A stretch of DNA of 64,000 nucleotides from contig JAZSRP010000043.1 in assembly GCA_045538555.1 (NCBI GenBank), positions 9,616-73,615 on the forward strand, given 5' to 3'. This DNA is from Eubacteriales bacterium (GTDB lineage: Bacteria > Bacillota > Clostridia > Oscillospirales > CAG-382). This document shows, in pieces, positions 16,164 through 64,000 of this stretch (positions within the stretch are counted from its first letter, which is position 1; every line of letters starts with the position of its first letter). The position numbers and the translations under genes are program-made. Under the pieces are notes generated by a model that worked only from the letters and a program-made list of their open reading frames with translations, did no database searches and was not told the origin of the DNA.

Positions 16164-16180
16164 ACAGTTATATATTGCAT

Positions 16181-16204: not shown

Positions 16205-16227
16205 AAATCAACTTACGGAGGCACAAA

Positions 16228-17193: not shown

Positions 17194-17206
17194 GCTTGCA
17201 CACTGC

Positions 17207-17236
17207 AAAAAAACAGCGAAAAAACGCTGTTTTTTT
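17207..17236 (+). terminator. Rho-independent terminator
   Basis: cagcg-aaaaaa-cgctg hairpin flanked by an A-run and a T7 run. Confidence 0.7.
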
Positions 17237-17656
17237 GATCTTATCAAAAGAACATGCGTTTTGTAAAAATGTGCTTGTTGTAGAATTATTTAAACTCAAG
17301 TTGTGCAATGTGTACACAATATTTGCTTTCACTATTCGAAAAATTCGAGAGAAATAAATTTTAAAAAATCAAGTATATATTTTTTGGCATTTTTCTGAAA
17401 GATAAATGTGTAAATAAAGTTATATATTTTTTGCCTGTTGTGAAACATAAAAATAACGTTTGCCTTTAAAATCAAGGGGTTTTGTTGTGATTAACTTGCC
17501 TCGGCAATTATAAAATTTTCAAATTTAAATTTTGCTTAAAAAATTCATAACAACAAAATTAACAGTTGAAATATGTCGAGATTATTTGTGATTTTTGAGC
17601 AAGTGAGATACATTAGTATAAATTGCATTATTTTGAATCGTGTTTTATATGCACAC

Positions 17657-17686
17657 TTGACAAAATGACGAACCATGTGCTATTAT
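17657..17686 (+). promoter_or_regulatory. Putative sigma-A promoter of the glycan ABC locus
   Basis: TTGACA (17657-17662), an 18-nt spacer, then an extended -10 TGcTATTAT with the hexamer at 17681-17686. Confidence 0.55.
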
Positions 17687-17705
17687 CACATATATAAAAA
17701 TATAC

Positions 17706-17735
17706 CGTGCGTACATATGCGCATATGTGTGCACG
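17706..17735 (+). promoter_or_regulatory. 30-nt quasi-palindrome in the 5' leader (operator or RNA hairpin)
   Basis: Perfect 16-bp palindrome ACATATGCGCATATGT at 17713-17728. It extends to cgtgcgt.../...gtgcacg if G-U pairs are allowed. It lies between the predicted -10 and the RBS. Confidence 0.45.
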
Positions 17736-17769
17736 TATATCCAAAGGATTCTTCGCAGGAGGATTAGAA

Positions 17770-36771: not shown

Positions 36772-37339
36772 AAATAGCGGACCAATTGACATTTTTTCTG
36801 CAGAAGAGCTGATCCTTGAATTACTTCAAAAAAAACCATCCGAGCCTGTTTTTGTAGCAATCGATGGCGAAATCGGAGCAGGGAAGTCATATTTTGCAAA
36901 TTTAATGCACGAAAAACACTGTCTTTCGGTTGTGCATACCGATGACTTTTATAAACCCGGTTTTGATCCAAAAAAACCTCCTGTATTTGATGGAAATATT
37001 GATTTTGAACGTCTGTGCAGAGAGGTTTTTTTTCAAACATCAGATATATTTTCTTATGGTGTGTTTGATTGTTTTGTGCAGACAAATGTTTGCCAAAGAA
37101 TGATTGATGCAAGAAAACCGATCATTATTGAGGGAACTTATTCTCTCCACCCAAGAATATCTCAACGATATTCATTGAAGTTGTTTTTTGAAACAGCTGA
37201 GGATGTGAGAGACAACCGCATTTCCGCCCGTGGACCGGATGCCGAAAAACGTTTGACAAATATTTGGATCCCTGCCTCAAAGAGATATTTTGAGCATTAC
37301 AAAATTAAAGAACGTTGCCACGCAGTTGTAAAAACTTGA
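36761..37339 (+). CDS. Uridine-kinase-like P-loop NTPase
   Basis: Walker A IDGEIGAGKSY, then HTDDFY and IIIEG motifs as in the uridine kinase/PRK family. ATG 36761 lies 7 nt after AAGGAG. Confidence 0.6.
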   Translation: MWAKNSGPIDIFSAEELILELLQKKPSEPVFVAIDGEIGAGKSYFANLMHEKHCLSVVHTDDFYKPGFDPKKPPVFDGNIDFERLCREVFFQTSDIFSYGVFDCFVQTNVCQRMIDARKPIIIEGTYSLHPRISQRYSLKLFFETAEDVRDNRISARGPDAEKRLTNIWIPASKRYFEHYKIKERCHAVVKT

Positions 37340-37353
37340 AAGGAATCGAAAGA

Positions 37354-39111
37354 ATGAGCGTTTTTTGTTATAATGAGAAAAGTTTCTTGCTTGACGAAAC
37401 AGAGTTTCAGATTATATCAGGATCTATCCATTATTTTCGGACCGTTCCGCAATATTGGCGGGACAGATTGAGAAAGCTCAAACAATGCGGATTCAATACA
37501 GTCGAAACATATACATGCTGGAACCTCCACGAGAGGCGCGAGAACGAGTTTTCGTTTGAAGGTATACTTGACCTCGGTCAGTTCCTGGATATTGCCAAGG
37601 AAGAAGGTCTGTACGCCATTGTAAGGCCGGGGCCGTATATCTGCGCAGAGTGGGAGTTTGGCGGTCTGCCTTCCTGGCTTTTGAAGTACGAAAACATCCA
37701 TATCCGATGCCGCAATCCCATCTTTTTGGAAAAAGAAAAAAGATATCTGTCAAAACTGTTTGAAATCATTGTACCGCGGCTTATAACAAACGGCGGAAAC
37801 ATCCTGATGGTACAGGTAGAAAACGAGTATGGATCATATGGAAATGATCACGATTACATCAACGAGCTTGCAGATTTTTACCGTCAATGCGGAATTGATA
37901 CCGTTCTTTTTACTTCTGACGGAGCAAACGAGATGTTTCTCGGAGGCGGAACAGTTCCTGATCTTTTACCAACCGCAAATTTTGGATCGGATTTTAAAAC
38001 CTGGTTTGGTGAATTGGAACGCTTGCGCCCCGGGTTTCCAAAAATGTGCGCTGAGTATTGGGACGGTTGGTTTGATACCTGGCACGAGCCCCATCACAGA
38101 CGAATCCCCGATGATGTACCTCAACAGTTGGACGGTATTATATCAAGCGGCGGCAATGTGAATTTTTATATGTTTTGCGGTGGAACAAACTTTGGATTCC
38201 ACAATGGAGCAAATATAATTGACGGAAAGATTTGCCCTCAGACCACCAGTTATGATTATGATGCGATGTTGACTGAGGAGGGCGACCTTACAGAACGGTA
38301 TTTCAGATGCAGAGAAGTGATTGAAAAGCATTTTGGCACGCTTCCTCCGCTTACTGTAAACAATACAAAAAAAATGAGCTATGGCAAAGTATTGTTGAAA
38401 GAAAGTTCTTCTGTCATAAAGTACGCAAAAAACAACGTAGATCCAATAGTTTCAGCTTTTCCGCAGAGTTTTGAAGAACTGGGCATTGATTTTGGATTTG
38501 TACTGTACAGCACAACAATCGATTATGAACTGCCTGAAACAGAGATCATAATCGAACCCGTTAGGGACAGAGCGATTATTTTTATCAACGGAATATATGC
38601 AGGCACAAAAGAGCGTGATCGTCGTGACGACAGGGTTACTGTTTCTGTTAAAAAAGGCGAAACGGTGCAGGTCGATGTTCTGATGGAAAATATGGGCCGT
38701 GTCAATTATGGGCAGTATATGCTTGACAACAGAAAAGGGATAACAACCGGCGTTAGAACAGGACAGCAATATCTGTTTGGCTGGAAGATGTACCCAATGA
38801 CAATGGATGATCTTTCAAATGTTGTCTTTGACCGTGAAAAAGGGTTTACAGAGCCCGCATTTTTGAAAGGTGAATTTGCTGTCGACGGAACCCCGTGTGA
38901 TACTTTTGTACGCCTTGACGGGTTTAAAAAAGGATTTGTATGTGTAAACGGTTTTAATATCGGTAGATATTGGAATACCGCGGGTCCGCAAAAAACTTTA
39001 TACTTGCCTGCGCCGCTTCTAAAAAAAGGAAATAATACCGTTGTCGTCTGCGAGCTTGACGGTTATGAACAAGCAGAGATATGTCTTACTGATGTTCGTG
39101 ATCTCGGTTGA
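37354..39111 (+). CDS. Beta-galactosidase, glycoside hydrolase family 35
   Basis: GSIHYFRTVPQYWRDRLRKLKQCGFNTVETY, RPGPYICAEWEFGGLPSWL, and VQVENEYGSYG carrying the acid/base Glu. Confidence 0.9.
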   Translation: MSVFCYNEKSFLLDETEFQIISGSIHYFRTVPQYWRDRLRKLKQCGFNTVETYTCWNLHERRENEFSFEGILDLGQFLDIAKEEGLYAIVRPGPYICAEWEFGGLPSWLLKYENIHIRCRNPIFLEKEKRYLSKLFEIIVPRLITNGGNILMVQVENEYGSYGNDHDYINELADFYRQCGIDTVLFTSDGANEMFLGGGTVPDLLPTANFGSDFKTWFGELERLRPGFPKMCAEYWDGWFDTWHEPHHRRIPDDVPQQLDGIISSGGNVNFYMFCGGTNFGFHNGANIIDGKICPQTTSYDYDAMLTEEGDLTERYFRCREVIEKHFGTLPPLTVNNTKKMSYGKVLLKESSSVIKYAKNNVDPIVSAFPQSFEELGIDFGFVLYSTTIDYELPETEIIIEPVRDRAIIFINGIYAGTKERDRRDDRVTVSVKKGETVQVDVLMENMGRVNYGQYMLDNRKGITTGVRTGQQYLFGWKMYPMTMDDLSNVVFDREKGFTEPAFLKGEFAVDGTPCDTFVRLDGFKKGFVCVNGFNIGRYWNTAGPQKTLYLPAPLLKKGNNTVVVCELDGYEQAEICLTDVRDLG

Positions 39112-40561: not shown

Positions 40562-40770
40562 AAAATCACCTCTGATATCATATTAAACCACTTAATTATA
40601 CAACATTTTTGTAAAAAGTAAAATACTTTTTTTCAAAAAAATGAAATAAATACATACAAGATATACCGCAAATTTTTGTTATACAAATCAAACAATATTG
40701 ATTTTGCGGTAGATGTATGATATTATAAAATTAAATATAAGATAAAAAATAACGCACGGGGAGTTTATTG

Positions 40771-43700
40771 ATGAAAAAGATAGCTACAGTATTCTTGGCA
40801 GCTTTTATCCTTTTCTCACTGGTCATTCCTTTTGAAACTGTATTTGCCACGAGATATATCGGTGATTTGAGTGGAGATAAAAGCGTTACTGCAGTTGATT
40901 ATCTCACGCTCAAAAGATATTGTCTCGGCACCTATGATCTTTCGCGCAGCTCTTTGGAAGCGGCTGACGTCAACGGGGACGGTGACATCGGTGCCTCTGA
41001 CTATTTGATGGTAAAACGCAGTGTACTTGGTACATATGATATTTCAAACCCCGAGTTTTTCACACCTGTCAGCAACGGAAAGCAATATTCATTCAGTGTT
41101 TCACCAAGCAGCACTTATCCCGATACTTACTCATGTGAGCTGACCGATGGCATCCATGCAAAATCCGCTTCTTATTCTTCAAATGAATTTTGCGGTATAA
41201 ATTCAAGCTTTTTTGTGGTATTGGATTTGGGAAACGACGGCAAGAAGCTCAATCGATTTGAACTCTATTATCTTGCCACAACAAATGCCGGTATTGCTGC
41301 TCCCGCTGCTATTGATCTGTACGGTTCAGATGATGGGGTTTCATGGGAATCTATCGGCACGATGACAATGCCCGCATATGTTGAAAACACGATCCAGTGT
41401 GCATATTTTGTGCCACAGACAGAGCTTGAATATCAATACATAAAATATGACCTGACCAAAAAAGCATATTGGATATTTATAGATGAGATTGTTGCATATT
41501 CAAATATTCCTGATTACAAAACTTATCCCTCTGACAGAGTTTTTGAGTCTTATCGAAGTGATACTGTTACGGATTCACAGCGTCAAGTGAATCTCATTGC
41601 ACTTTCCAACGGTGTTTCATACGATAAAGAAAAAGGAAAAACCGTCATTTCCAATAATTGCAGCTATGAAATCACTGCAAACGGGTTTGACTGGAGGACG
41701 GGTGAAAAATCCGGGGTGCTTACCGACGGAGTTGATACCGGTTCTTATTTTGAAAGTCAAAATTTTGTGGGAATCGATGCAAACGGAGGTATCGGCATCA
41801 CAATCGATCTTGGTCAAAAATATACCACCATTTGCGGTTTTTCTCTCCATTGCTTCAAGCGTCCCGCCGCAAAAATCGATTTGCCTGTTTTTGTTGATAT
41901 ATTTGCCGGTGATTCTACCGATACGATGATCAACGTTGCAAGATCATATATGACTTGCGGTGAAGATGAAAATTTTGAGTATTTTGTGACACTTGATTCA
42001 ATTATATGTGCAAGATACATTACTTTTTATATCCCTGCAAATGATTTTTACTGTTGGGTTGAAGAGGCACAAATATTTGAAAACAGCGGCTCTGCCCCTT
42101 TGCAGTATTTTGTATATGATACTCCAAACATTCCGGTTATTGAAAAAGATATATATCACAATGTATCCGATTCCGATTATAATACACACCAAAATCTGAT
42201 TCTTGGAAAAACTCAGCAGATTACTTCGGATATTGATCTTGATTACGAGTATTACGGTGAATCAAACACTCCTCAGACCTCCAATCTGCTTACGGACGGA
42301 AAATATACATCCGACACCAACTGCTACAACGGATATTGGTTTCATTTCTCTCGAGGCACAGGTAGAAATGTTTTTTATGATCTTGGAGCACTTTCTGCAG
42401 TTGATAGCTATTCAATCCGTTTTCTTGTAAATGACAGTTGGGGAATCCGACTGCCCACAAAAGTGTCGCTCATTCTTTCTCAAAACGGTAAAGACTGGTA
42501 CGTCGCAGACACCCATTATCCAGACGTATTGTATGACGAACAGATTTTTGTTGTTGAGCGCGAGCTAAACAAACAATACAAGGCAAGATACGCTCTTGTT
42601 TACATGACGGTCGCCGCACACGTATTTCTTGATGAAATTACTGTAAACGGCACAAAAAATATTGATTATGCAACCTCTCTCTCTTCCTCAGGTCTTTCAA
42701 CCCACTCTGTATTTACAGGAAACGAAAACCAAGGGTATATGGCACCCGATCCCGATATTCTCGGTGGCGCAAAGGATGTCAATCTGGTTTATCATACAGG
42801 AACCGTCACTGATGAAGAGTTTCTTTTGCCATATGTGGCATATTTGGATCAAAACGGAAATATTGTCGACACAATGTTTGACGGATTTTTGTTTCTTCCC
42901 ACCACCGGCACTTTACCAAGCGGCGGTAGACCATACGGAACAAATATCAAGAGCGACTGGGATTATTTGTACAACGATATTTTTGCTTCAGACAGATGCT
43001 TCCAGGCACTTGAAAACGTGGCAGATAGCGTAAAAACAGCACTTGGTATATCACAGCTCAAGCTCAAGGTTTTTGTTGCAATTCCGCACCTTGACACAAC
43101 GTTGACAAGCTTTGGCGATGTAGACGGTGACGGTGTTTCCGAGAACCTGACAAAAATGGATGACCGCATCAAGGTTACACAGTGGTATACCCAAAAAGTG
43201 CGTACGGAATTTGACGCCCGAGGGTATGACAATCTACAGCTCAACGGTTTTTATTGGTTCCATGAAACAATTGAAGGTGACGATGCCGAGACGGCAAAAA
43301 ACGTCAGCGCAATGTTGAAATATAACAACGAGCAGCTGTTCTGGATCCCTTATTTTCAGGCAACCGGATTTACAGACTGGAAAGATTTTGGTTTTGTGAC
43401 GGGCTGTCTCCAGCCAAATTATGCTTTCAATCTTGACGTACCGGTATCTCGGCTTTACTACGCTTCGGAGATTGCAAAGAAGTACGGAATGTGCATTGAG
43501 CTGGAATTGGACAACAGAGCTTTTTCTGATGACAGATACTTCCAGAAATATATGGATTATTTGCGATGCGGTGTAGAATACGGATATATGAGTGACTGTA
43601 TCCATATGTACTACCAAGGCGTGGGATATTTTAATACTGCATGCTATTCTACGGGAAAATACAGATTGATATACGACTATACGTATCAGTTTGTGAAAGG

Positions 43701-43974
43701 CACGTTGGGATTTGATATTGACAGTGTTGTAGATCAGGAATACAACGCCTATTCCAACAAAATGTTTTCTGGCAATCTCAATGCAAATGACACTGTCGGC
43801 GTCTCTTTTGAATTGACAAAATCTCCGTCTCACGGGACTGTATCGGTTGATTCAAACGGTGATTTTGTCTACTATCCCAACAAGGGTTTTTCAGGTACTG
43901 ACAGCTTTTGCTTTGCTGCCAATGATTATCTTTGTACATCCGGTGATTGTACAGTCACAATAAACGTGGAATGA
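40771..43974 (+). CDS. Secreted multidomain protein: N-terminal dockerin-type module, three discoidin/CBM-like domains, DUF4855-like domain, C-terminal Ig-like domain
   Basis: Signal peptide followed by a duplicated EF-hand dockerin segment (DLSGDKSVTAVDYLTLKRYCLG / DVNGDGDIGASDYLMVKRSVLG). Three beta-sandwich units each open with LTDG (CELTDGIHA, GVLTDGVDT, NLLTDGKYT). The FDGFLFLP..FYWFHE region is DUF4855-like from memory. The tail is SPSHGTVSVDSNGDFVYYPNKGFSGTDSF. Confidence 0.6.
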   Translation: MKKIATVFLAAFILFSLVIPFETVFATRYIGDLSGDKSVTAVDYLTLKRYCLGTYDLSRSSLEAADVNGDGDIGASDYLMVKRSVLGTYDISNPEFFTPVSNGKQYSFSVSPSSTYPDTYSCELTDGIHAKSASYSSNEFCGINSSFFVVLDLGNDGKKLNRFELYYLATTNAGIAAPAAIDLYGSDDGVSWESIGTMTMPAYVENTIQCAYFVPQTELEYQYIKYDLTKKAYWIFIDEIVAYSNIPDYKTYPSDRVFESYRSDTVTDSQRQVNLIALSNGVSYDKEKGKTVISNNCSYEITANGFDWRTGEKSGVLTDGVDTGSYFESQNFVGIDANGGIGITIDLGQKYTTICGFSLHCFKRPAAKIDLPVFVDIFAGDSTDTMINVARSYMTCGEDENFEYFVTLDSIICARYITFYIPANDFYCWVEEAQIFENSGSAPLQYFVYDTPNIPVIEKDIYHNVSDSDYNTHQNLILGKTQQITSDIDLDYEYYGESNTPQTSNLLTDGKYTSDTNCYNGYWFHFSRGTGRNVFYDLGALSAVDSYSIRFLVNDSWGIRLPTKVSLILSQNGKDWYVADTHYPDVLYDEQIFVVERELNKQYKARYALVYMTVAAHVFLDEITVNGTKNIDYATSLSSSGLSTHSVFTGNENQGYMAPDPDILGGAKDVNLVYHTGTVTDEEFLLPYVAYLDQNGNIVDTMFDGFLFLPTTGTLPSGGRPYGTNIKSDWDYLYNDIFASDRCFQALENVADSVKTALGISQLKLKVFVAIPHLDTTLTSFGDVDGDGVSENLTKMDDRIKVTQWYTQKVRTEFDARGYDNLQLNGFYWFHETIEGDDAETAKNVSAMLKYNNEQLFWIPYFQATGFTDWKDFGFVTGCLQPNYAFNLDVPVSRLYYASEIAKKYGMCIELELDNRAFSDDRYFQKYMDYLRCGVEYGYMSDCIHMYYQGVGYFNTACYSTGKYRLIYDYTYQFVKGTLGFDIDSVVDQEYNAYSNKMFSGNLNANDTVGVSFELTKSPSHGTVSVDSNGDFVYYPNKGFSGTDSFCFAANDYLCTSGDCTVTINVE

Positions 43975-54191: not shown

Positions 54192-55136
54192 TTACTGGTT
54201 ATTATCCGAAAAATTGGGGGAGGAAGATTCCTGTTGAGGAACAAACTGCTGTGCAGTCCCGCCAAAATTGTTTGTATCAGTCCCGCCGGAGATAACGGGG
54301 CAGGCAAGAATCGCTTTTGAGAATTCTGAAATAAAGGATGCAAGTATAAAATAGAAGAATATGTCAAAAATGTTACCGATAAAGGAAACCACGGTAGATG
54401 CATTAAAAACATTTTGACCATCTGCAGGGGCACCGATAAATCCGATGATAGCAAGTATAGTCCCAATTATCATGATAGTGGCAATCGCTCTATAAAAACC
54501 AACGATATATCCGGCTTTCTTAAATGTTGCCACACCAAGCTCCACTTGATTGCGGATTGCCTTGATCTGTCCGGAAATTTTGTGAAGTGCAATAATATAC
54601 AAAACAACAAAAATGAGAATTACAACAAAGACAACTGTGAGGATATTGTATACCAGTTCAAAGAGATCAATAACGCCGGTTGTACCAAAAAAAGTCACAA
54701 AGATCTCTTTGGGAATCTCTGTATACTTGTCAATTGTTGAAAAGATGATAAGAAAAATAAGAAGAGCCACACCAATGATGTACAATATTACATTCATAAA
54801 CACAGGGTAAAAACGAAGGTATCCAACGTTTTTTACTGTAACGTTTTTCTTTAGTGCATATGCTCCAAAAACGGTAAAAGCCAAAAACACAATAGGAAGA
54901 AGTGCACCGATCAAGGTTGGTACATCAAATTCCTGAGATGTGAGCGTGGAAATAGCAGAATAGATGGTCATTCCAAGAGAGATAGCCAACAAAATGCATA
55001 CAGTAGACCATTTTTTAGAAGAGAAGTAATATTTTATGCAGTCAAGGCGAGGGCTTGACGAAACAACATTGCATCCGCAATTTGTGCAAAAAGATGCATT
55101 GCTGTCCAATGGGGCGCCACAGTTTTTACAAAACAT
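54192..55136 (-). CDS. Zinc-ribbon domain membrane protein
   Basis: N-terminal CKNCGAPL..FCTNCG zinc ribbon, followed by about 6 TM helices. AAGGAG RBS. Confidence 0.65.
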   Translation of the reverse strand: MFCKNCGAPLDSNASFCTNCGCNVVSSSPRLDCIKYYFSSKKWSTVCILLAISLGMTIYSAISTLTSQEFDVPTLIGALLPIVFLAFTVFGAYALKKNVTVKNVGYLRFYPVFMNVILYIIGVALLIFLIIFSTIDKYTEIPKEIFVTFFGTTGVIDLFELVYNILTVVFVVILIFVVLYIIALHKISGQIKAIRNQVELGVATFKKAGYIVGFYRAIATIMIIGTILAIIGFIGAPADGQNVFNASTVVSFIGNIFDIFFYFILASFISEFSKAILACPVISGGTDTNNFGGTAQQFVPQQESSSPNFSDNNQ

Positions 55137-55270: not shown

Positions 55271-57898
55271 TTACCAGACGGTAACAGTACAGGAAAGTGA
55301 ATCTGATGAACGCTCTCGTGTTTCGGTATCAAAGATATAAATAGTGTATGTACGGCGGCCAAGATTCTGCGCCTGGAATTTTATTTGATACATATCGCGG
55401 TTTTGGTTGGAATTGAAAAATATCCATTCTTCAACATAAACTCTGTTGTTCAGGTCATCGTAAATACGAATATTCTCTTTCAACTCTACAAAATCATGAC
55501 CTTTCTCAACACCTACTGCAAATATAAAGTATTTTCCAAGATTTGCAGTATCGGTTCTTGAGGCGACGCTGAACAAATAATTGTTTTCGCTGACATCAGA
55601 GAGGAGCACAAGCTCGTCGCTAAGGCGTGTAAGCCGCGAGAAGTAGTTGTCAACCTTTGCTTGCTCAATATCTGCGTCAGAGTTCAAATATGCCTCTGCC
55701 TCAACTGCAAGCTGTTTGTATGCGTTGTATGACTCCGTAGTATAAGAAGCAGAATTGCAGTTTTCAAACAGATTCAGAGCATCATTCAGATCAGATGCAT
55801 CATATACGGGCTTATTTTCAAGAGAAGCAATTGCAGCATTGATAGCATCAAGCGCTTTGTTTACATCTGACTGAGAAGGATCGCCATTGAGAATCTCTCT
55901 GCCTGCATCAACAGCAGCAGTATATTTACCAAAGCTCTCTTTTGTATATGCAAATCTGTTTGTATCATAGTTGCTGTCATATTCTTCAATTGCGGCAATG
56001 AGTGCTGTGTAATCAGCGCCATATGTTATTGTCGCTTCTTTCAAATTGGCGGGTGCATTGCCAAGTGAAGAAATATCTGCTGCATAGTCTGTGTATGATT
56101 GGGAGGTGTTGGCGGTAGTTTCCCAGCACTTTGCCGCATTTGCACGGATGGGACCAATAGCAGTTGACATTATATAATCTTCTGTATACTGATTTGGTAT
56201 ATCACACCAGATTGCATATGCGCCGCCGGTTACATTGCTTCTGTATTGATTTGGAATTGTTGTCGGTGTGGATGATCCGGCAGGAATATCAATATAGGGA
56301 TTCCACTCGTTGTAGATCTTTTGAGCAGTGGCTCTCGGGCCGTTGTATGCGTTCAAAACATAATAATTGTAATCCTGGAGGTAATTGACAACATTATATT
56401 TTTCTGCATACTGTGAAAGCGTGTTGAAATATGGACTGCCCCATGGATTTGTCCAATAATTGATAGAAAATCCTGAGTTGAGTTGTACGACTCCATTCCA
56501 TCCGGTGTCTGTAGAACGCATTACGTCATCATTCCACATTCTGATATCATCAAAGCCAAGATCTTCTACAATGCCGTAAACGGTGTTCATGAAATAAAGG
56601 AAGGCATCATAGGCAACGGCATTATTGTTGCCGGTGATAGATTTTGCATAGCTGTCCCAGTGGGGGAGTGCCTGCCATCTGTTATATCCTCCGACAGTAC
56701 CCCATCCCAAAAGTTCATCGCCGCCGATATCAAACTTTGTGCAACCGAGCTCTCTGAAGAAAGTACCATATGCCCTGTAGAGTTCAAAAACAAAATCACG
56801 CGCCTCTTGACTTGCGATATCAATACATCTTGAGTATTGATCCGCTGTTCCACCGGCCGCACTTGACCCCTCTACAATGTAATATCTGTTGTTATAGTAA
56901 AAATAATTTCCGATACCAAAATTTGTATTTCCAAAGGTTGCTCCGGAAACGTTGTAGTTTGGGTCATCGGCATAGTTTGAACTGCCGGAATGGTACTTTG
57001 AAACCTTGCTGCTGTTCTTGTTGTACTCGTGGATAAGGTAATTTAAATGTCCGGGGGAATCAAAAGAGGGCACTATCTCAACGTGATACAATTTTGCAAC
57101 CTCAGCAATTTCACGCATGTCAGATACAGTCAAAACGCTATTGTCGGTAGGAACATTTATCGCTTGTGTGCACATTGCTCCATCACGACCCGCAACCTCT
57201 GCAATCCATTTGTAATCATCACTGAAATATGATTCATCAAGTGCGATACCAAGTCCCATTTCTTCAGAGAAATGGAGATAAAGTGTATTCATATTTGACC
57301 ATGAGATCTCACGAATCATTTCCTTGATCCAGTTGGGTGTAAAATACTTTCGACCGCAATCCAACGAAAGGCCGCGCTCCATCATATCGGGAGAATCGGT
57401 ATATGTCTGACCTACGATAAGGTCATCCCCAAGTATCAACTGGCGGATAACATATCTACAGCCATAAAAAAGTCCGTCAGCATCGGATGCTTTTACAACA
57501 ATTCTTCCGCCGACAGGTACTTCAATTGAAAATCCCTGAGCAGTAATGTTGTGAGCTGATGAAAGTGAAAGAACAATATCGTTTTCACCAATGCTATCTG
57601 CATCATCGCAATACTTGATAGGAAGAACTTGTGATGTACATCCCTTTGACTCAAGCTCTGATGCAAAGAGCTTTATTTGTTCTGCCAGATCAGTATCAGA
57701 TTTGTCAGAGATAGCAGTTTCAAGCCACACGATTGAAGTTTCGTTTGTGACTTTCCATTGAATACCCTGAGGCGAAACACCAAGGGAACCTGTGCTTGCA
57801 GCAATTGCACAGATGTTGGTGAATGAAAGCATGCAAAGCAGCGTCAACAACAGAGAAATACATCTGTTTGTGTTTGATTGGGGGTTTTGCTTCTTCAT
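55271..57898 (-). CDS. Secreted GH20 beta-N-acetylhexosaminidase-like enzyme with FIVAR-like helical repeats and C-terminal Ig-like domain (copy B)
   Basis: Signal peptide. GH20 barrel start RGLSLDCGRKYF, then SFDSPGHLNY and the catalytic pair in FDIGGDELLGW. Start set at the MKKQ Met (57898), after GAAAGGA, by analogy with copy A; the track start is 57916. Confidence 0.85.
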   Translation of the reverse strand: MKKQNPQSNTNRCISLLLTLLCMLSFTNICAIAASTGSLGVSPQGIQWKVTNETSIVWLETAISDKSDTDLAEQIKLFASELESKGCTSQVLPIKYCDDADSIGENDIVLSLSSAHNITAQGFSIEVPVGGRIVVKASDADGLFYGCRYVIRQLILGDDLIVGQTYTDSPDMMERGLSLDCGRKYFTPNWIKEMIREISWSNMNTLYLHFSEEMGLGIALDESYFSDDYKWIAEVAGRDGAMCTQAINVPTDNSVLTVSDMREIAEVAKLYHVEIVPSFDSPGHLNYLIHEYNKNSSKVSKYHSGSSNYADDPNYNVSGATFGNTNFGIGNYFYYNNRYYIVEGSSAAGGTADQYSRCIDIASQEARDFVFELYRAYGTFFRELGCTKFDIGGDELLGWGTVGGYNRWQALPHWDSYAKSITGNNNAVAYDAFLYFMNTVYGIVEDLGFDDIRMWNDDVMRSTDTGWNGVVQLNSGFSINYWTNPWGSPYFNTLSQYAEKYNVVNYLQDYNYYVLNAYNGPRATAQKIYNEWNPYIDIPAGSSTPTTIPNQYRSNVTGGAYAIWCDIPNQYTEDYIMSTAIGPIRANAAKCWETTANTSQSYTDYAADISSLGNAPANLKEATITYGADYTALIAAIEEYDSNYDTNRFAYTKESFGKYTAAVDAGREILNGDPSQSDVNKALDAINAAIASLENKPVYDASDLNDALNLFENCNSASYTTESYNAYKQLAVEAEAYLNSDADIEQAKVDNYFSRLTRLSDELVLLSDVSENNYLFSVASRTDTANLGKYFIFAVGVEKGHDFVELKENIRIYDDLNNRVYVEEWIFFNSNQNRDMYQIKFQAQNLGRRTYTIYIFDTETRERSSDSLSCTVTVW

Positions 57899-57999
57899 GA
57901 TAGTTCCTTTCATCATTTGTGCGTAACTATCAAAAGCAATTATTGAGGAATTGAATACAACAAATACAGCTTTTTGTTATATCAAATATCCTCAGGATA

Positions 58000-58081: not shown

Positions 58082-58858
58082 TTAACCAAGCGCAACATCA
58101 AGCAGCATCATAACAGAAAAACCTATCGCAACACTCAAAGAGGCCACATGATCATTTTGGTCAGAATTTATATCCGGTATAAGATCTGATATTACCACAT
58201 ACACCATGGCTCCTGCTGCAAATGACAGCACGTAGGGAAGTGCAAAGCCCACAACAGACGTAATAGCTATTGTAATAATTGCAGAAATCGGTTCAACAAT
58301 TCCTGAAATCAATCCGACAAATAATGCTTTTTGTTTTGAAACGCCTTCTCCTGCAAGCGGCAAAGAAATCATTGCTCCCTCCGGAAAATTTTGGACTGTT
58401 ATACCCAAAACAAGTGCAAAAACCTCCGCTTCCGACACCAACGTGTGTGCTTCCAGCAATGCAGAAAGTACCACACCCACCGCCATTCCTTCAGGAATAT
58501 TGTGCAATGTAACTGCAAGGAACATTAAAAATGACTTTTTTCCAGTGTGCCTACTCCATCTTGCAGATTGCATTTTTTTCAATATATCATCAATTAATAT
58601 TAAAAATAACACTCCTACCAAAAATCCTGTAACGGCAGGAAACCATTTTGCAAAGCTGTTGTTTTCTGATAAATCAATTGCGGGTATCAAAAGTGACCAC
58701 ACTGATGCTGCAAGCATTACTCCCGATGCAATTCCCACAAGTGCTTTTTGTGTTATTTTATCCGCATCTTTTTTCAATACAAAAACCGTCAAAGCACCAA
58801 AAGAAGTACCAAAAAACGGCAATATAATTCCAAATATTATTTTTGCAGATTCACACAT
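58082..58858 (-). CDS. ZIP-family divalent metal transporter (ZupT-like)
   Basis: 8-TM protein with the HNIPEGMAVG and QNFPEG signature pair. AAAGGAG RBS. Confidence 0.85.
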   Translation of the reverse strand: MCESAKIIFGIILPFFGTSFGALTVFVLKKDADKITQKALVGIASGVMLAASVWSLLIPAIDLSENNSFAKWFPAVTGFLVGVLFLILIDDILKKMQSARWSRHTGKKSFLMFLAVTLHNIPEGMAVGVVLSALLEAHTLVSEAEVFALVLGITVQNFPEGAMISLPLAGEGVSKQKALFVGLISGIVEPISAIITIAITSVVGFALPYVLSFAAGAMVYVVISDLIPDINSDQNDHVASLSVAIGFSVMMLLDVALG

Positions 58859-58908: not shown

Positions 58909-58941
58909 AAAAAAAGAGTGATGCAGTCAATAGCATCACTC
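58909..58941 (-). terminator. Rho-independent terminator after the radical SAM gene
   Basis: Read on the minus strand: gagtgatgc-tattgact-gcatcactc followed by T7. Confidence 0.8.
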
Positions 58942-58947
58942 AAAATT

Positions 58948-60042
58948 TTATGATTTTGCAGCATTTAAAAATGATTTGCAATAAGTTTTTATATATTTGC
59001 ACATCTCTGGCGCAAGTACAGATGGATCACCGTTGCGAGCAAACCCGATCGCAGCACATGAAGGGCAGATCTTTTTGTATTGACAATCTGTACAATCTTT
59101 TGGCAAAAACATGCTTTCTGTACGTTTTGTAATCTCGTTCCATGCATTTTGAAAACCGTATTTCAAGGGTTCTGACCAAAATCCGTTGATCATTCCGCAT
59201 GGAAGCATCAACCCATCCCAGGTGATCCAAAATGCGCCTTTTCCTGCCATGCATGACGATGCAGAACATTCAACCGGGTCATCAGTAAGCTCCGGTTCTT
59301 CAGCTTCGGTGATATTTGTCAACACTTCGATCCGTCTTTGCTTCTGCTCATTGTTCATGGTCAAAATATCAAACTTGGATGACAAACAGCCCATTTCTTC
59401 AGGAGAAAGAAAACAAGAATCCTCTGAGCTTCCGCATTTTCTCACCGGTGGAAAAATATAGCTTGCGGTGCGAATAGGGATGTTGTGTTCTTTTGAAAAA
59501 GCAACAAGATCAAAAATATCGTTTTTGTTATAATGCGTAAACGTTGTATTTATAATAACGTTAAAACCGCTGTTTTTGAGTTTTAGGATCCCCTCAATGG
59601 ATTTTTTGTATCCGGAATTATTTTGGCATAGGGAAGTATATGTCTCTTCACTTGAGCCGTATATAGTCACGTTTATACGCTCAGGTGGGTGGTTGTGAAA
59701 ACAATCAAGTATCTCCTGGGTTATGCAAGATGCATTTGTATTTATGGAAATAATAACTCCCATTTTTGCCATTTCTGTATAAATATAGGAAAAATCTTTT
59801 CTCAACAAGGGTTCTCCGCCGGTCATGAGAAGATAAATCATTCCTTTATTTACAGCTTGTCTGCCAATATCGATCCATTGCGCGGCAGACAATTCACGCG
59901 ACATGGCGTGTGTATCGTTTTCATCAGAATGGATATAGCACATTTTACAGTCAAAATTACATCTTGCAGTCAGCTCAAATGTTCCGCTGACAGGAATTTT
60001 GTTGTAAGCACCTTTTGCAAAGAGATACTTTTTCATGTTCAT
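58948..60042 (-). CDS. Radical SAM enzyme with C-terminal SPASM domain (anSME/peptide-maturase-like)
   Basis: CxxxCxxC (CNFDCKMCY) begins at about residue 28, with GGEPLL downstream. The Cys-rich C-terminus is CSASSCMAG..PCG..CTDCQYKKICPSCAA..C. There is no room for an N-terminal RRE/PqqD-like domain. Confidence 0.85.
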   Translation of the reverse strand: MNMKKYLFAKGAYNKIPVSGTFELTARCNFDCKMCYIHSDENDTHAMSRELSAAQWIDIGRQAVNKGMIYLLMTGGEPLLRKDFSYIYTEMAKMGVIISINTNASCITQEILDCFHNHPPERINVTIYGSSEETYTSLCQNNSGYKKSIEGILKLKNSGFNVIINTTFTHYNKNDIFDLVAFSKEHNIPIRTASYIFPPVRKCGSSEDSCFLSPEEMGCLSSKFDILTMNNEQKQRRIEVLTNITEAEEPELTDDPVECSASSCMAGKGAFWITWDGLMLPCGMINGFWSEPLKYGFQNAWNEITKRTESMFLPKDCTDCQYKKICPSCAAIGFARNGDPSVLAPEMCKYIKTYCKSFLNAAKS

Positions 60043-60063: not shown

Positions 60064-60099
60064 GAAAAATTACGGGCTTCCATCTTGAGGGAAGCCCGT
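60064..60099 (-). terminator. Terminator-like hairpin after GH20 copy A
   Basis: Read on the minus strand: acgggcttcc-ctcaagat-ggaagcccgt, then aattttt. The hairpin is a paralog of the one after copy B. Confidence 0.6.
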
Positions 60100-60110: not shown

Positions 60111-62645
60111 TTACCAAACATTAACAGTACAGGAGAGAGAATCAGCAGAACGTGTGATTCCGTCCTTGTCAAGGATATAAATAGTATAGGTGCGTGTTCC
60201 GAGATGCTGTGCCTGGAATTTGATCTGATACATATCGCGGCTGTCGTTTGTATTGAAGAAAAGCATATCCTCTATATAAACTCTGTTGTTGAGATCGTCA
60301 TAGATACGGATTTCAGAGAACTCATATCCTTTGTTGATACCCACAGCAAATATAAAGTATTTACCAAGATTTGCAGTAGAGGTTCTGGACGCAACACTGA
60401 ACACGTAGTCATTTTCGCTGACATTGGAAGTGAGCACAAGCTCTTCACTCAGACGGAAAAGTCTTGAGTAATAGCTGTCAACTCTGGTCTGCTCAATATC
60501 AGCATCAGAGCTGATATATGCTTCAGCTTCAACAGCAAGCTGTTTGTATGCGTTGTATGATTCAGCAGTATATGCAGAAGAGTTACATGCTTTGTACTCA
60601 GCAAGAGCACTCTTGAGATATGACGCATCATACTCCGGCTTGTTTTCAAGAGCATCGATTGCAGCATTGATAGCATCAACAGCTTTGTTTACATCAGACT
60701 GAGAAGGTTCACCATTGAGAAGTGCTCTGCCTGCCTCAACAGCTGCAGTATAATTGCCAAAGCTCTCTGTTGTATATGCAAATCTGTTTGTTTCGTAGTT
60801 GTTGTCATATACTTCAATAGCAGCAACAAGAGCAGCAGTATCAACACCAAAAGTGATGGTTGCTTCTTTGAGATTTGAAGGAGCACTGCCAAGAGTTGTC
60901 ATTCTGGAAGCAAAAGCAGAATAAGTCTCATAAGAATTTGCACTGGTATTCCAACATTTTGCAGCATTTGCGCGGATAGGATCAATTGCACCGGATTTTA
61001 CCTGTGCTTCAGTATGGAGCGAGGGATGGTCACACCAAATAGCATAAGCACCGCCCAAAACATTTGATCTGTAAGAGCTGCTTACAGATGTTCCGCTTGT
61101 ATCCTGTGTATAAGGAGTCCAGCTGTCATAAATTGTTTGGGCCGAAACTTTGGCCCCGTTTGTGCCGGTATTGACTATATAGTAGTTGTAATCATCAAGG
61201 AAATTGATGATTTTGTATGATTTTGCATAAGTATCAATTGTATTTTGACCGGATGTCCAATAGTTGATTCTGATATTGGAATTAAGAGTTACTGCCTGCT
61301 GCCAACCTGTATCAGAGGAGCGGAGTGCATCGTCATTCCACATTCTGATATCGTTGTAACCGAGATCGACGAGCAGACTATATACACTATTGAGATAATA
61401 GATAAATCCGTCATAAGCAACCACATTGGTTTTTCCGGTTACAGACTTAGCATACTCTTTCCAGTGGTCAAGCTGCTTCCATTTTGTAACAGAGCTGGAG
61501 GGTACAGCAGAGCCCCAACCCAAAAGCTCGTCACCACCCAGGTCAAACTTTGTACAACCAATGGATCTGAAAAAGTTTCCATATGCTGTGTAAAGCTCAT
61601 AAGCAAAGTTTCTTGCTTCTTCACTTGCAATATTGATACCTCTTGAATAAGAAGTATTGCGTGAACCTTTTACAAGAGTAGTATAATTGTTGTATTTGAA
61701 ATAGTTACCGATACCAAATGTACCGTTGTCCTTATTGTAATCGGATGCAGAAGCGTAGCCATATTGCTTATTGTATTCGTGTACCAGATAGTTCATGTGA
61801 CCGGGGGAGTCAAATGAAGGAACGATCTCAACATGATACAGCTTTGCAACCTCTGCAATAGCGATAATATCGGATTTTGTCAGATATCTGTCATCGTCAG
61901 CAATTACAGCTCCTACACACATTGTGCCGTCACGGCCTGCAACGTTGGCAATCCATTTATAACCTTCTGAAAAATCGGATTCATCAAGCTTGATGCCAAG
62001 TCCCATCTCCTCTGAGAAATGGAGATAGAGAGTGTTCATATTGGACCAGGATATCTCACGTATCATATCCTTGATCCAGTCGGGAGTAAAATATTTTCTT
62101 GCACAGTCGAGGAAAAGTCCGCGCTCAAGAGTGTCGGGGGAATCGGTATATGTCTGACCGACAATAAGCTTGGTTCCAAGAATAAGCTGCTGAATAACAT
62201 ATCTGCAACCGTAAAAGAGGCCGTCTGCATCAGATGCTTTTACTACAATTTTTCCACCTACAGGAACTTCAACTATAAATCCCTGAGTGGTGATGTTGTG
62301 AGAAGATGAAAGATTGAGAACGATATCATTTGTTCCTGCGTTGCTGATATCATCACCGTATTTGATGGGAAGCACACTTGAGGTACAGCCTTTTGCTTCA
62401 AGCTCGGATGCAAAAAGCTTTACTTGATCAGCAAGTTCAGTATTTGATTTGTCTGAATCAGCAGTTTCGAGCCAAAATATCTCTGTATCGTTTGTAACGA
62501 CCCATTGAACTCCGCTGGGGGATACTCCAAGTGAACCCGTGCTTGCAGCAATAGCACAGATATTTGTAAACGAGAGCACACAAAGCAGCATCAGCACAAG
62601 CGCAAAAGATCTGCTTGTTTTAGAATAGGAACATTGCTTCTTCAT
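60111..62645 (-). CDS. Secreted GH20 beta-N-acetylhexosaminidase-like enzyme with FIVAR-like repeats and C-terminal Ig-like domain (copy A)
   Basis: Same architecture as copy B: RGLFLDCARKYF, SFDSPGHMNY, FDLGGDELLGW. GAAAGGAAG RBS. Confidence 0.85.
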   Translation of the reverse strand: MKKQCSYSKTSRSFALVLMLLCVLSFTNICAIAASTGSLGVSPSGVQWVVTNDTEIFWLETADSDKSNTELADQVKLFASELEAKGCTSSVLPIKYGDDISNAGTNDIVLNLSSSHNITTQGFIVEVPVGGKIVVKASDADGLFYGCRYVIQQLILGTKLIVGQTYTDSPDTLERGLFLDCARKYFTPDWIKDMIREISWSNMNTLYLHFSEEMGLGIKLDESDFSEGYKWIANVAGRDGTMCVGAVIADDDRYLTKSDIIAIAEVAKLYHVEIVPSFDSPGHMNYLVHEYNKQYGYASASDYNKDNGTFGIGNYFKYNNYTTLVKGSRNTSYSRGINIASEEARNFAYELYTAYGNFFRSIGCTKFDLGGDELLGWGSAVPSSSVTKWKQLDHWKEYAKSVTGKTNVVAYDGFIYYLNSVYSLLVDLGYNDIRMWNDDALRSSDTGWQQAVTLNSNIRINYWTSGQNTIDTYAKSYKIINFLDDYNYYIVNTGTNGAKVSAQTIYDSWTPYTQDTSGTSVSSSYRSNVLGGAYAIWCDHPSLHTEAQVKSGAIDPIRANAAKCWNTSANSYETYSAFASRMTTLGSAPSNLKEATITFGVDTAALVAAIEVYDNNYETNRFAYTTESFGNYTAAVEAGRALLNGEPSQSDVNKAVDAINAAIDALENKPEYDASYLKSALAEYKACNSSAYTAESYNAYKQLAVEAEAYISSDADIEQTRVDSYYSRLFRLSEELVLTSNVSENDYVFSVASRTSTANLGKYFIFAVGINKGYEFSEIRIYDDLNNRVYIEDMLFFNTNDSRDMYQIKFQAQHLGTRTYTIYILDKDGITRSADSLSCTVNVW

Positions 62646-62675: not shown

Positions 62676-63503
62676 TCACTGATTATTTAACCAATCAGAT
62701 AGTGCAACAGATGCAGAGTGGGATCTAACACAAGCAAACCTGACAATATCAGTAACAGCAACAATTTCTTGGATTGTATTTAATACATTTTCATTCAACA
62801 AACGGTCTGATTCAAATCTGATGCACTCAGAATAAAGCGTCAAAAAGGCATCGCGCTTTGTCATTTTACACACAGCGTTTTTTTCACTCTTTTCAACTCG
62901 TGCAACAACCTTTACGTTTGCCGAAATATCTCTGTATATGCCTGATGTACCTGCAATCGGACTGCCGTAAGCGATACATTTTCCATCATTGACAGCAAGT
63001 ATCACTTTGTCACCGTTGAGCATCTCCGAGCCAAATTTTTCTTGCCATATTTGTGCCTGAGTTGATTTTCCGCCGCCGGAGGGGGCGCAAAAAATGATTG
63101 CTTCACCGGCATCAATAACGCATGAAGAATGAAGTACAACTCGTCCGTGTTTGGCAAAAAAACGCTCAAGATTTAATAGCAAATTCCAGTTTGCATTACT
63201 TGTTATTGCATTTTTAAAAGATGTTGGAACAAACAGATAATAAAGGGTATTGTCCTCAAATGATTCTGAAAGAATGATTTTTGAACCGTCGTTGAGGGGA
63301 AATTCTTTGATAACCCTAACTCTTTGGTCATTTTTACAAAAATATTCACCCACAAAAATCTCAAATACGCCCTGGTGGGTCGCCTCAGATGCTTCCTCCC
63401 TTAAAAAAGGGAGGAAGCAATCCGGGAAATCGATTTTTACGGGTGATTTGATTCTGATATTCAGACCTGCGATACAAAAATCAAAATTATATTTGCCTGT
63501 CAC
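62676..63503 (-). CDS. HPr-kinase-like P-loop protein (HprK C-terminal-domain-like)
   Basis: LHSSCVIDAGEAIIFCAPSGGGKSTQAQIW..LNGDKVIL resembles the HprK catalytic-domain pattern HG..v...g.gvLi.G.SG.GKSe.a..L...g..LvaDD. A GTG at 63503 overlaps the upstream stop (GTGA); the track TTG start at 63539 would overlap by 40 nt. Confidence 0.6.
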   Translation of the reverse strand: MTGKYNFDFCIAGLNIRIKSPVKIDFPDCFLPFLREEASEATHQGVFEIFVGEYFCKNDQRVRVIKEFPLNDGSKIILSESFEDNTLYYLFVPTSFKNAITSNANWNLLLNLERFFAKHGRVVLHSSCVIDAGEAIIFCAPSGGGKSTQAQIWQEKFGSEMLNGDKVILAVNDGKCIAYGSPIAGTSGIYRDISANVKVVARVEKSEKNAVCKMTKRDAFLTLYSECIRFESDRLLNENVLNTIQEIVAVTDIVRFACVRSHSASVALSDWLNNQ

Positions 63504-63721
63504 GAAGTAAACGCAACCTGAACGTTGGAGTGGTAGCAAATCTCAGTGCCCATAATTCTTCCATCAGCATCAGGGAGAATATAGCAAGTGCTATCTGCAA
63601 AAACGCCAAGGTTTACAAGTGATTTCACATCATCAAAATCTGCTGTACAGTTGAAAGCGATGGGGGAGTCAAGCTCAAGTGACTCGGTGGCAATCATGGG
63701 CTTGGTGTATTGTTTTTTCAT
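63500..63721 (-). CDS. Small acidic Cys-containing protein (73 aa), candidate modified-peptide precursor
   Basis: AAGGAGGG RBS 7 nt before the ATG. The sequence is MKKQYTKPMIATESLELDSPIAFNCTADFDDVKSLVNLGVFADSTCYILPDADGRIMGTEICYHSNVQVAFTS. It has no signal peptide, and its stop is coupled to the next gene. Confidence 0.6.
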   Translation of the reverse strand: MKKQYTKPMIATESLELDSPIAFNCTADFDDVKSLVNLGVFADSTCYILPDADGRIMGTEICYHSNVQVAFTS

Positions 63722-63738
63722 TTTTAAGCCCTCCTTAT

Positions 63739-64000
63739 TTAATCGACAAACACGTCAAGCTTGTTGACGGAAGCGTTTCCGTTTGCGTCAAATGCTCTGA
63801 CAGTGTAGGTTTGTCCTGCGGTGAGAGAAATCTCTGCAACAAATGTCACGGTGTCATCACCAACAGACTTTGTGGATCCAAGGATCTCTACTTCATTGCC
63901 AAACATATCAAGCACGGAGATCTTCTCAGCACCTGCGGTAGTAACAACAGTGAGAGCACCGTCTGCATTTGCAGAAAGTACAGTCAGCTCATCGTTGACA
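63739..64000 (-). CDS. 3' end of a gene extending beyond the window; C-terminal Ig-like domain
   Basis: My own translation of the minus strand gives ...VNDELTVLSANADGALTVVTTAGAEKISVLDMFGNEVEILGSTKSVGDDTVTFVAEISLTAGQTYTVRAFDANGNASVNKLDVFVD, with the stop at 63741-63739. It is not in the ORF track because no start lies inside the window. Confidence 0.6.
   Translation of the reverse strand, partial: VNDELTVLSANADGALTVVTTAGAEKISVLDMFGNEVEILGSTKSVGDDTVTFVAEISLTAGQTYTVRAFDANGNASVNKLDVFVD

Follow-up and report, generated by a model that had tools for sequence, protein, structure and literature searches.

Enzymes related to HPr kinase (HprK) act on ribosomal peptides in described settings. In phosphorylated lasso peptides, kinases phosphorylate the conserved C-terminal Ser of the precursor, and require a His-Lys-Asp-Asp motif to do so (PMC9266682). 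In the linear polyphosphorylated peptides (LPP; LppA/K/B/S/D/N), the HprK-like kinase LppK phosphorylates its precursor, and the motif [Y/W]xxPx[L/V/I/F/A] is that bound by discrete lasso recognition elements (PMC13381572). In addition, HprK-related proteins adjacent to PqqD and radical SAM/SPASM genes have been catalogued computationally for years, as the SynChlorMet cassette (ScmC/ScmD/ScmE/ScmF) and the HPr-rel-A and GeoRSP systems of TIGRFAMs/NCBIfam, apparently with no precursor, chemistry or function assigned. Here, we examined a small Cys-rich peptide gene and its overlapping kinase-like partner in a 64,000-nt stretch of DNA (the window), and show that they belong to a six-gene operon of gut Clostridia, not described in the literature searched, that joins peptide-modifying enzymes to two secreted sugar-binding or sugar-cleaving proteins.

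The peptide, the kinase-like gene and their operon

The original prediction was of a 73-aa Cys- and Asp-rich peptide translationally coupled to an HprK-like protein, inferred to form a RiPP-like system, possibly with a radical SAM/SPASM gene located downstream. Every sequence feature it described is present, on the minus strand (Table 1), and the radical SAM gene starts 2.63 kb downstream. An NCBI gene call for the 275-aa protein uses the same GTG start. The conservation of both genes is far beyond chance: the peptide has 13 further close homologues, 53-80% identical, and 92 representative clusters in a library of 1.84 billion proteins, and its partner has 64 further homologues.

Table 1. Features of the operon within the window, listed in order of transcription.
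Coordinates	Strand	Feature	Details
63739..64000	-	Giant secreted fibro-slime/PA14 protein, C-terminal end	Last 86 codons and stop; C-terminal Ig-like domain (CTD)
63729..63736	-	Shine-Dalgarno sequence	AAGGAGGG; 2 nt after the giant's TAA stop; 7-nt spacer (CTTAAAA) to the peptide ATG
63500..63721	-	73-aa precursor-type peptide	ATG 63721-63719; TGA 63502-63500; Y5xxP8xI10, LDxPIA, three Cys (C25-T-A-D, C46-Y-I-L-P-D, C62-Y-H-S-N); ends ...VAFTS (Ser73)
62676..63503	-	275-aa ScmC-like P-loop enzyme, predicted HPr-kinase/PEPCK fold	GTG 63503-63501, overlapping the peptide stop (GTGA); contains IFCAPSGGGKST...LNGDKV; H125, P-loop A140-PSGGGKST-148, N163-G-D165-K
60111..62645	-	844-aa secreted GH20 hexosaminidase or lacto-N-biosidase-like enzyme	Signal peptide, GGDE catalytic pair, FIVAR domain, CTD
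60072..60099	-	GC-rich hairpin (10 bp) followed by a T-run	Between the GH20 stop and the radical SAM start
58948..60042	-	364-aa radical SAM/SPASM enzyme	C28x3C32x2C35 plus seven C-terminal Cys; no recognition domain of its own
58916..58941	-	Intrinsic-terminator-like hairpin plus TTTTTTT	7 nt after the radical SAM stop; 3' end of the operon

The peptide contains 10 Asp/Glu against 5 Lys/Arg, lacks a hydrophobic signal sequence and has no Pfam or NCBIfam match. Its N-terminal region carries the YxxPx[ILV] leader motif that PqqD-type recognition elements bind. Across the family, Y5 and P8 are 100% conserved and C25, C46 and C62 are 97-99% conserved, with E13, A22, F41, Y63, H64 and the terminal Ser also near-invariant. 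Of 89 representatives, 86 end in Ser and 56 have exactly three Cys, an odd number that cannot all be in disulfides. In contrast, the Asp or Asn residues that follow each Cys in the window copy, noted in the original prediction, are only about 50% conserved, so Cys-x-x-x-Asp/Asn ranthipeptide motifs were rejected as a family signature. A sulfatase-type C-x-P/A-x-R formylglycine motif at CTADF was also rejected, as there is no Arg and no sulfatase gene. The peptide is not predicted to fold (AlphaFold pLDDT 42.5, with only one short helix), and this, together with a separate PqqD gene in every complete relative, argues that it is not itself a PqqD-like domain.

The 275-aa protein matches HprK-related sequence models only weakly. 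TIGR04352 was hit at E 5.5e-5 (22.4 bits against a cut-off of 200), the ScmC model TIGR04249 at E 0.012 (14.9 bits against 125) and TIGR04355 at 12 bits against 200; the TIGR00679 (hpr-ser) threshold was not reached. Pfam Hpr_kinase_C did not hit, and a search of a Pfam copy lacking PF27840 returned only noise at E <= 1, although homologues carry a weak precomputed PF27840 ScmC hit. However, the AlphaFold model (pLDDT 92.9) matches PEPCK and HPr kinase/phosphorylase structures at E 1e-6 to 1e-5 (probability 1.00) and, with one exception (a respiratory supercomplex chain, 8iuf, at E 3e-4), all Foldseek hits below E 0.1 are PEPCK or HprK/P, at E 9e-7 to 2.5e-3 and probability 0.99-1.00. The P-loop, which fits the Walker A pattern GxxGxGK[ST], is invariant in 24 homologues. 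A narrow-profile sequence search of the PDB gave no HprK hit, but a wider profile aligned the P-loop with GDSGVGKSE of L. casei HprK/P, and the conserved H125, P-loop K146 and D165 with His140, the P-loop Lys and Asp179, respectively. Only one Asp of the His-Lys-Asp-Asp motif is present, as the position of the first is occupied by Gly164 (NGD instead of ADD).

Gene order was then compared between relatives. The order PqqD, a ~1,500-aa secreted fibro-slime/PA14 protein, the peptide, the kinase-like gene, a secreted GH20 and radical SAM/SPASM is fixed in 16 complete loci from gut and rumen Clostridia, with 7 further loci cut by contig ends, whether the search is anchored on the kinase-like gene or independently on the peptide. 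Wherever the contig allows, the peptide gene is always followed by the kinase-like gene and accompanied by the radical SAM/SPASM gene. Only these six genes are shared between the 18 loci compared (the window and loci L001-L017), whereas the flanks differ and no protease or exporter is conserved. The GH20 is therefore part of the unit, as is the giant PA14 protein, and not a mere neighbour. Packing is tight, with 17 nt from the giant's stop to the peptide ATG and 30 nt from the kinase-like gene to the GH20 start. The hairpin between the GH20 and radical SAM genes could be a partial terminator or a stabilizer; a strong hairpin sits at the same position in all 14 loci examined, with folding energies of -22 to -49 kcal/mol. 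An Rfam search of the whole window found nothing.

The C-terminal end of the giant protein was identified by phmmer against the C-termini of giants in syntenic loci (E 2e-12) and by an HMM of the CTD (E 5e-22). The rest of this gene and the PqqD gene lie beyond the window end, and are inferred for this genome only from synteny. In relatives, the giants are about 1,350-1,690 aa and have Sec signal peptides, a TIGR02148 fibro-slime domain (66.6 bits, cut-off 45) and a PA14 domain; a PDB sequence search with the giant gave nothing. The PqqD protein matches best the lasso PqqD chaperone model lasso_PqqD_Bac (E 2.3e-7, below its cut-off). The GH20 domain is recognized by PF00728 (E 1.9e-27; 97 bits against a cut-off of 22.3), its closest solved structures are 6jqf/7ezt and the lacto-N-biosidases, and the DIGGDELLGW motif (DLGGDELLGW in the window copy) and signal peptides are present in all 18 copies. 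The GH20 and the giant share the CTD, which PDB and Pfam searches place only as a generic Ig-like fold and which, in a large protein search, returned only fragments of close relatives. The radical SAM enzyme (Pfam Radical_SAM, E 2e-21) has the full SPASM Cys set, C264...G277x4C282, C317x2C320x5C326x2C329 and C348, conserved together with the CxxxCxxC motif in 18-19 of 19 sequences.

Proposed role of the operon and alternative readings

Together, these results support the original prediction of a peptide-modification module, and none of the computational refutation tests named with it refuted the idea. With reasonable confidence, we consider the two genes to encode the precursor peptide and the ATP-using tailoring enzyme of a self-contained six-gene operon, although the chemistry and the fate of the product are inferred. 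In this scheme the Y5xxP8xI motif docks as a strand on the PqqD protein, as inferred from motif identity with lasso and LPP leaders; PqqD presents the peptide to the radical SAM/SPASM enzyme, inferred to cross-link the three near-invariant Cys, most likely as thioethers; and the HprK-like enzyme is inferred to use ATP to phosphorylate the C-terminal Ser, as lasso-peptide kinases do. More distant Clostridia loci contain peptide, ScmC-like, radical SAM and PqqD genes without the secreted proteins, and those peptides also end in Ser. As the operon has no protease or exporter of its own and always carries two Sec-secreted glycan-active proteins with a shared CTD, the modified peptide probably acts with those proteins at the cell surface rather than as a free antibiotic. 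This last step is the weakest. The absence of a conserved leader peptidase or exporter leaves unexplained how a cytoplasmic peptide would meet Sec-secreted proteins. The strong conservation of the core is unusual for antibiotic peptides and better fits a structural or cofactor role.

A tentative extension, compatible with the maturation steps above, is that the cross-linked, C-terminally phosphorylated peptide is a stoichiometric component (small subunit, anchor or glycan-attachment handle) of an extracellular glycan-degrading complex of the GH20 and the PA14/fibro-slime giant, perhaps bound through their shared CTD. It would then be the first peptide of this biosynthetic type dedicated to a secreted carbohydrate-active complex in Gram-positive gut bacteria. 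The interleaved gene order, the shared CTD and the conserved core motifs (LGYF, DT[IV]CYHSN) are consistent with such a role, and one further locus (L022) pairs the peptide and ScmC-like genes with a different giant secreted glycosidase, a GH88. A possible parallel, by analogy only, is the gamma subunit QhpC of quinohemoprotein amine dehydrogenase, which appears to be a Cys- and acidic-residue-rich peptide of about 80 aa without a Sec signal, bearing Cys-to-Asp/Glu cross-links, matured by the radical SAM/SPASM enzyme QhpD and encoded between the genes of secreted large subunits. However, the operon described here lacks a Trp-derived quinone (the peptide has no Trp), a heme subunit, the QhpE protease, the QhpF exporter and QhpG, and its partner proteins are glycan-active. 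Furthermore, GH20 enzymes need no cofactor, sets without any secreted partner exist, and, as there is no exporter for the peptide and Sec exports unfolded chains, assembly would have to occur outside the cell.

It is doubtful, but possible, that the HprK-fold protein is not a Ser kinase and uses its P-loop for other chemistry, such as carboxylate activation or a pyrophosphate-dependent reaction, or acts as an ATP-dependent scaffold for the radical SAM step, with the terminal Ser conserved for another reason, for example as the radical SAM target or a recognition point. The top structural hits are PEP carboxykinases, which cover more of the model than HprK does (TM-score on the query 0.44-0.47 against about 0.3), only one Asp of the kinase pair is present, and no member of the ScmC family appears in the literature searched. 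On the other hand, the His, Lys and Asp align with the catalytic residues of HprK/P, related enzymes sit in LPP-like gene sets, and a near-invariant terminal Ser is the hallmark of precursors of kinase-containing lasso clusters (PMC9266682).

A free antimicrobial or signalling peptide, with the GH20 and giant genes as unrelated passengers, is unlikely. Radical SAM/SPASM peptides characterized to date seem mostly to be bacteriocins or signals, and the core four-gene sets do occur alone in other Clostridia; however, the interleaved order is kept at 31-41% identity of the kinase-like protein across families, with unrelated flanks, no exporter, immunity gene or protease is conserved, and the core sequence is conserved. 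That the 73-aa ORF encodes an ordinary small folded or regulatory protein is very unlikely: although conserved over its whole length, it is not predicted to fold, has a lasso-type leader motif and is always adjacent to PqqD, radical SAM and kinase-like genes.

Comparison with described systems

The paeninodin-type phosphorylated lasso peptides (PadeK, ThcoK and PsmK kinases with a discrete B1/PqqD recognition protein) share with this operon a discrete PqqD-type protein, a [Y/W]xxPx[L/I/V] leader, an enzyme of (here predicted) HprK fold and a precursor with a conserved terminal Ser. The operon differs in having no lasso cyclase, B2 protease or nucleotidyltransferase among its six conserved gene families, in adding a radical SAM/SPASM enzyme and three conserved Cys, in retaining only one Asp of the His-Lys-Asp-Asp motif, and in its fixed fusion with secreted glycan-active genes, a link not reported in the literature searched.

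The LPP system likewise combines a recognition protein, an HprK-like kinase and a YxxP leader without a lasso cyclase, and is linked genomically to polysaccharide biology; our operon would extend this recently noted, unexplained association between phosphorylated peptides and polysaccharide loci in Bacillota. The SpI-like peptidase, NTP transferase and MsbA-like exporter of LPP are absent from the six-gene operon. LPP-like accessory genes were found only in two distant relatives, L026 and L028, which place ScmC-like genes beside PqqD, an S24-like peptidase and NTP_transf_5 (plus an ABC exporter in L026). LPP has no radical SAM enzyme, and its phosphosite is Ser3 of the core, not a C-terminal Ser.

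As in the sactipeptide and ranthipeptide maturases (SkfB, PapB and relatives), a radical SAM enzyme with a full seven-Cys SPASM domain is paired with a Cys-containing peptide, and the sactisynthase SkfB is the nearest solved structure (E 1.9e-13). Full-length NCBIfam matches to SPASM families were obtained, but none reached a curated cut-off, including those for SkfB (71 bits against 300), WgkB (70 against 650), PapB (58 against 340) and StsB, and the enzyme has no fused recognition domain.

Finally, the SynChlorMet, HPr-rel-A and GeoRSP systems, which appear to be uncharacterized, also combine an HprK-related protein, a PqqD homologue and radical SAM/SPASM, and give the best NCBIfam and Pfam hits. 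All scores are far below the equivalog cut-offs, with 66 bits against 400 for ScmE and 24.5 against 100 for ScmD in addition to the ScmC score given above. Each operon has one radical SAM gene instead of two, although more distant loci such as L030, L036 and L053 do have two. In this operon a candidate precursor with a near-invariant C-terminal Ser and three Cys is identified, and the GH20 and PA14 genes are fixed members.

The 73-aa peptide and its predicted HprK-fold partner

The original prediction, that a 73-aa acidic, Cys-containing ORF ending in Ser is coupled to a 275-aa protein with an HprK-like P-loop context, was confirmed, with all of the features located on the minus strand. The TGA of the 73-aa ORF shares two bases with the GTG that opens the 275-aa ORF, and an independent NCBI gene call (P0001) uses the same 275-aa start. 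The peptide is acidic (10 Asp/Glu against 5 Lys/Arg), has no signal sequence, contains three Cys and ends in Ser, whereas the partner contains IFCAPSGGGKST...LNGDKV. The peptide is not a chance ORF: there are 13 further close homologues (53-80% identical), and a profile search of 1.84 billion representative proteins found 92 clusters.

Sequence models detect the 275-aa protein only faintly (HprK_rel_A TIGR04352, E 5.5e-5 and 22 bits against a cut-off of 200; ScmC TIGR04249, E 0.012; HprK_rel_B, E 0.08), and Pfam returned nothing, although homologues in the large collection carry a precomputed 'weak' PF27840 ScmC hit. The structural comparison is clearer. An AlphaFold model built on 24 homologues has a pLDDT of 92.9 and, apart from one respiratory supercomplex chain (8iuf, E 3e-4), its Foldseek matches below E 0.1 are all ATP- or GTP-PEP carboxykinases and HPr kinase/phosphorylases (E 9e-7 to 2.5e-3, probability 0.99-1.00), two enzyme families that share one fold. 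A wider profile that includes distant relatives reaches L. casei HprK/P by sequence (E 0.0018), and aligns H125 with His140, APSGGGKST with GDSGVGKSE, and NGD165 with ADD179. H125 and most of the P-loop are invariant across that alignment, and the rest are conserved. The protein is thus a predicted HprK-fold P-loop enzyme that keeps three of the four His-Lys-Asp-Asp residues that lasso kinases need (PMC9266682), but it is not a member of any curated family.

For the peptide, AlphaFold gives a pLDDT of 42.5 with one short helix, so it is not predicted to be a folded domain. In an alignment of 75 full-length family members (the window peptide plus 74 representatives) the near-invariant positions are M1, K2, Y5, K7, P8, E13, L17, A22, C25, F41, C46, C62-Y63-H64 and the last residue. 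Y5xxP8x[I/L/V] is the [Y/W]xxPx[L/V/I/F/A] motif that discrete lasso-type recognition proteins bind (PMC13381572). Of 89 representatives of 55-125 aa, 86 end in Ser, and at least one of the three exceptions looks truncated; 56 have exactly three Cys and 23 have four. The stretch between Cys2 and Cys3 is acidic and varies in length and sequence. The Asp/Asn residues following each Cys, which were noted in the original prediction, are only about 50% conserved and are not a family signature.

Coordinates of features in the window and in related loci
Location	Feature	Coordinates	Strand
Window	AAGGAGGG, followed by a 7-nt spacer and ATG	63736-63729	-
Window	73-aa ORF	63721..63500	-
Window	275-aa ORF	GTG at 63503, end at 62676	-
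Window	Ig-like C-termini of the giant protein and the GH20s	63742-63999, 60114-60413 and 55274-55573	-
Window	Hairpin between the GH20 and radical SAM genes	60072-60099	-
Window	Terminator-like hairpin after the radical SAM gene	58941-58916	
Window	ZIP-family zinc transporter gene	58082-58858	-
Window	Second GH20 gene	55271-57916, with promoter-like site 58069-58041 and terminator-like site 55258-55233	-
Window	314-aa multi-pass membrane protein	54192-55136, with promoter match at 55194-55166	-
Window	Dockerin-I protein and GH35 beta-galactosidase	40768-43974, 37315-39111	+
L002	Region of the genes flanking the operon	3680-4524 and 14457-20840	
L013	Decayed operon	9801-11751	
L022	GH88 protein with peptide and ScmC-like pair	519-8463	
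L026	LPP-like gene set	62-6051	
L028	LPP-like gene set	75-12207	

A conserved six-gene operon

Gene calls around the homologues show one order, as do our own ORF and HMM mapping of 69 loci from species-representative genomes and of 11 loci found independently with the peptide (loci are numbered with the prefix L). The order is PqqD (about 110-200 aa), a giant secreted protein (about 1,350-1,690 aa), the peptide, the ScmC-like enzyme, GH20 and radical SAM/SPASM. Sixteen loci are complete, and seven more are cut by contig ends but are consistent. One, L013 from a Christensenellaceae genome, is a decayed remnant, with a truncated peptide, the ScmC-like gene and an 85-aa radical SAM fragment but no PqqD, giant or GH20. 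The hosts are Oscillospiraceae, Ruminococcus, Anaerotruncus, Lachnospiraceae and other Clostridia, from human, ruminant and other gut samples, and their kinase-like proteins are only 31-41% identical to that of the window.

Clustering all ORFs of the window and of loci L001-L017 showed that only these six families are shared; the flanks differ, and no protease or transporter is conserved. In the window, the last 86 codons before position 64000 are the C-terminal domain of the giant, and PqqD and the rest of the giant are inferred to lie just beyond the window. In several genomes (L002, L003, L011, L076 and L078) the operon is followed by a multi-repeat DUF4379 treble-clef zinc-finger gene. In L002, L003 and L011 it is also preceded by a phage-type integrase, and L002 further carries DUF6076 and primase-like genes downstream, so the operon may travel on an integrative element.

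Secreted proteins, enzymes and neighboring genes

The giant protein has a Sec signal peptide, a conserved mature N-terminus (YVSLPITIRDYA), a fibro-slime domain (66.6 bits, cut-off 45) and a PA14 domain. The GH20 has a signal peptide and an intact catalytic D-E pair (GGDE motif) in all 18 copies. It also has a FIVAR domain, and its closest solved relatives are the 6jqf/7ezt hexosaminidases, lacto-N-biosidases and dispersin B. Both secreted proteins end in a homologous, uncharacterized Ig-like domain of about 95 aa: an HMM built on the giants hits the extreme C-termini of the GH20s at E 1e-10 to 8e-20, and at 4e-7 for the window copy. The domain matches no specific Pfam or PDB family, and in L001 a further upstream FIVAR giant also carries it.

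The radical SAM enzyme has CxxxCxxC and all seven SPASM Cys but no N-terminal recognition domain, and SkfB is its nearest solved relative. The best match of PqqD is the Bacillota lasso PqqD chaperone model (E 2.3e-7), followed by ScmD. A terminator-like hairpin follows the radical SAM gene, and a strong GC-rich hairpin lies between the GH20 stop and the radical SAM start in all 14 loci examined. The sequence of the latter is not conserved, but its position and stability are; it could be a partial terminator that sets the ratio of secreted proteins to enzyme, and may lower radical SAM expression relative to the upstream genes.

Beyond the operon terminator, the window contains a second GH20 gene that is 66% identical to the operon's GH20 and carries the same signal peptide and C-terminal domain. 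With its own perfect TTGACA-17-TATAAT promoter match and its own terminator, it looks like a duplicated copy expressed independently of the operon. A ZIP-family zinc transporter gene (ZupT-like, E 4e-28) sits between the operon terminator and this paralogue and is not conserved in other loci. The 314-aa membrane protein, of unknown function, has an N-terminal zinc-ribbon and a perfect consensus promoter match. The window also encodes a dockerin-I protein with DUF4855 and Big_9 domains and a GH35 beta-galactosidase, so the host seems to be a glycan-foraging Clostridium with cellulosome-type parts; Mfd, PFOR and a DUF5696 protein are also present.

Proposed mechanism and relation to known systems

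From the gene content, packing, motifs, predicted fold and conservation, we infer that the leader docks on PqqD, that the radical SAM/SPASM enzyme cross-links the Cys, that the HprK-fold enzyme phosphorylates the terminal Ser, and that the product works with the secreted GH20 and giant. Phosphorylation is the best supported of these inferences, because the terminal Ser is the most conserved feature of the core and is the known target of the nearest characterized enzymes. The link to the secreted proteins is the weakest, because no exporter or protease is present. A QhpC-like small-subunit role is a tentative alternative for the product, compatible with the docking, cross-linking and phosphorylation steps. 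A non-kinase role for the P-loop protein is a less likely possibility, and a free antibiotic or signal is argued against by the fixed interleaved synteny and the conserved core. The evidence also argues against an unmodified small protein.

Full-text searches found no description of ScmC or HprK-like proteins together with radical SAM peptide systems, or of such genes together with GH20 or fibro-slime proteins; the closest published system is LPP (2026; PMC13381572). The individual components are of known kinds. What is new, in the literature searched, is the combination of a recognition protein, an HprK-like enzyme and radical SAM/SPASM, inferred to act on a defined precursor, and its obligatory fusion with two secreted glycan-active proteins that share a private C-terminal domain.

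More distant Clostridia loci have the peptide, ScmC-like, radical SAM and PqqD genes without secreted proteins (L021, L023 and L024), while L081 and L082 show peptide, ScmC-like and radical SAM genes. In L021, L023 and L024 the peptides again start MKKxYxxP, have three Cys and end in Ser. In L022, a 2,219-aa secreted GH88 protein with Ig-like domains lies directly upstream of a peptide and ScmC-like pair, a second, different pairing with a giant secreted glycosidase. L026 and L028 place ScmC-like genes beside PqqD, an S24-like peptidase and an NTP_transf_5 gene, plus an ABC exporter in L026, which is essentially the gene set of the experimentally phosphorylated LPP peptides with a radical SAM/SPASM enzyme added; L028 lies next to Wzz/CpsD-type capsule genes and has two ScmC-like genes. 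Still more distant loci (Omnitrophota, Planctomycetia) show the classical layout of two radical SAM genes, ScmC and PqqD. The window's operon is therefore one branch of a continuum running from lasso and LPP kinase systems to SynChlorMet-type cassettes.
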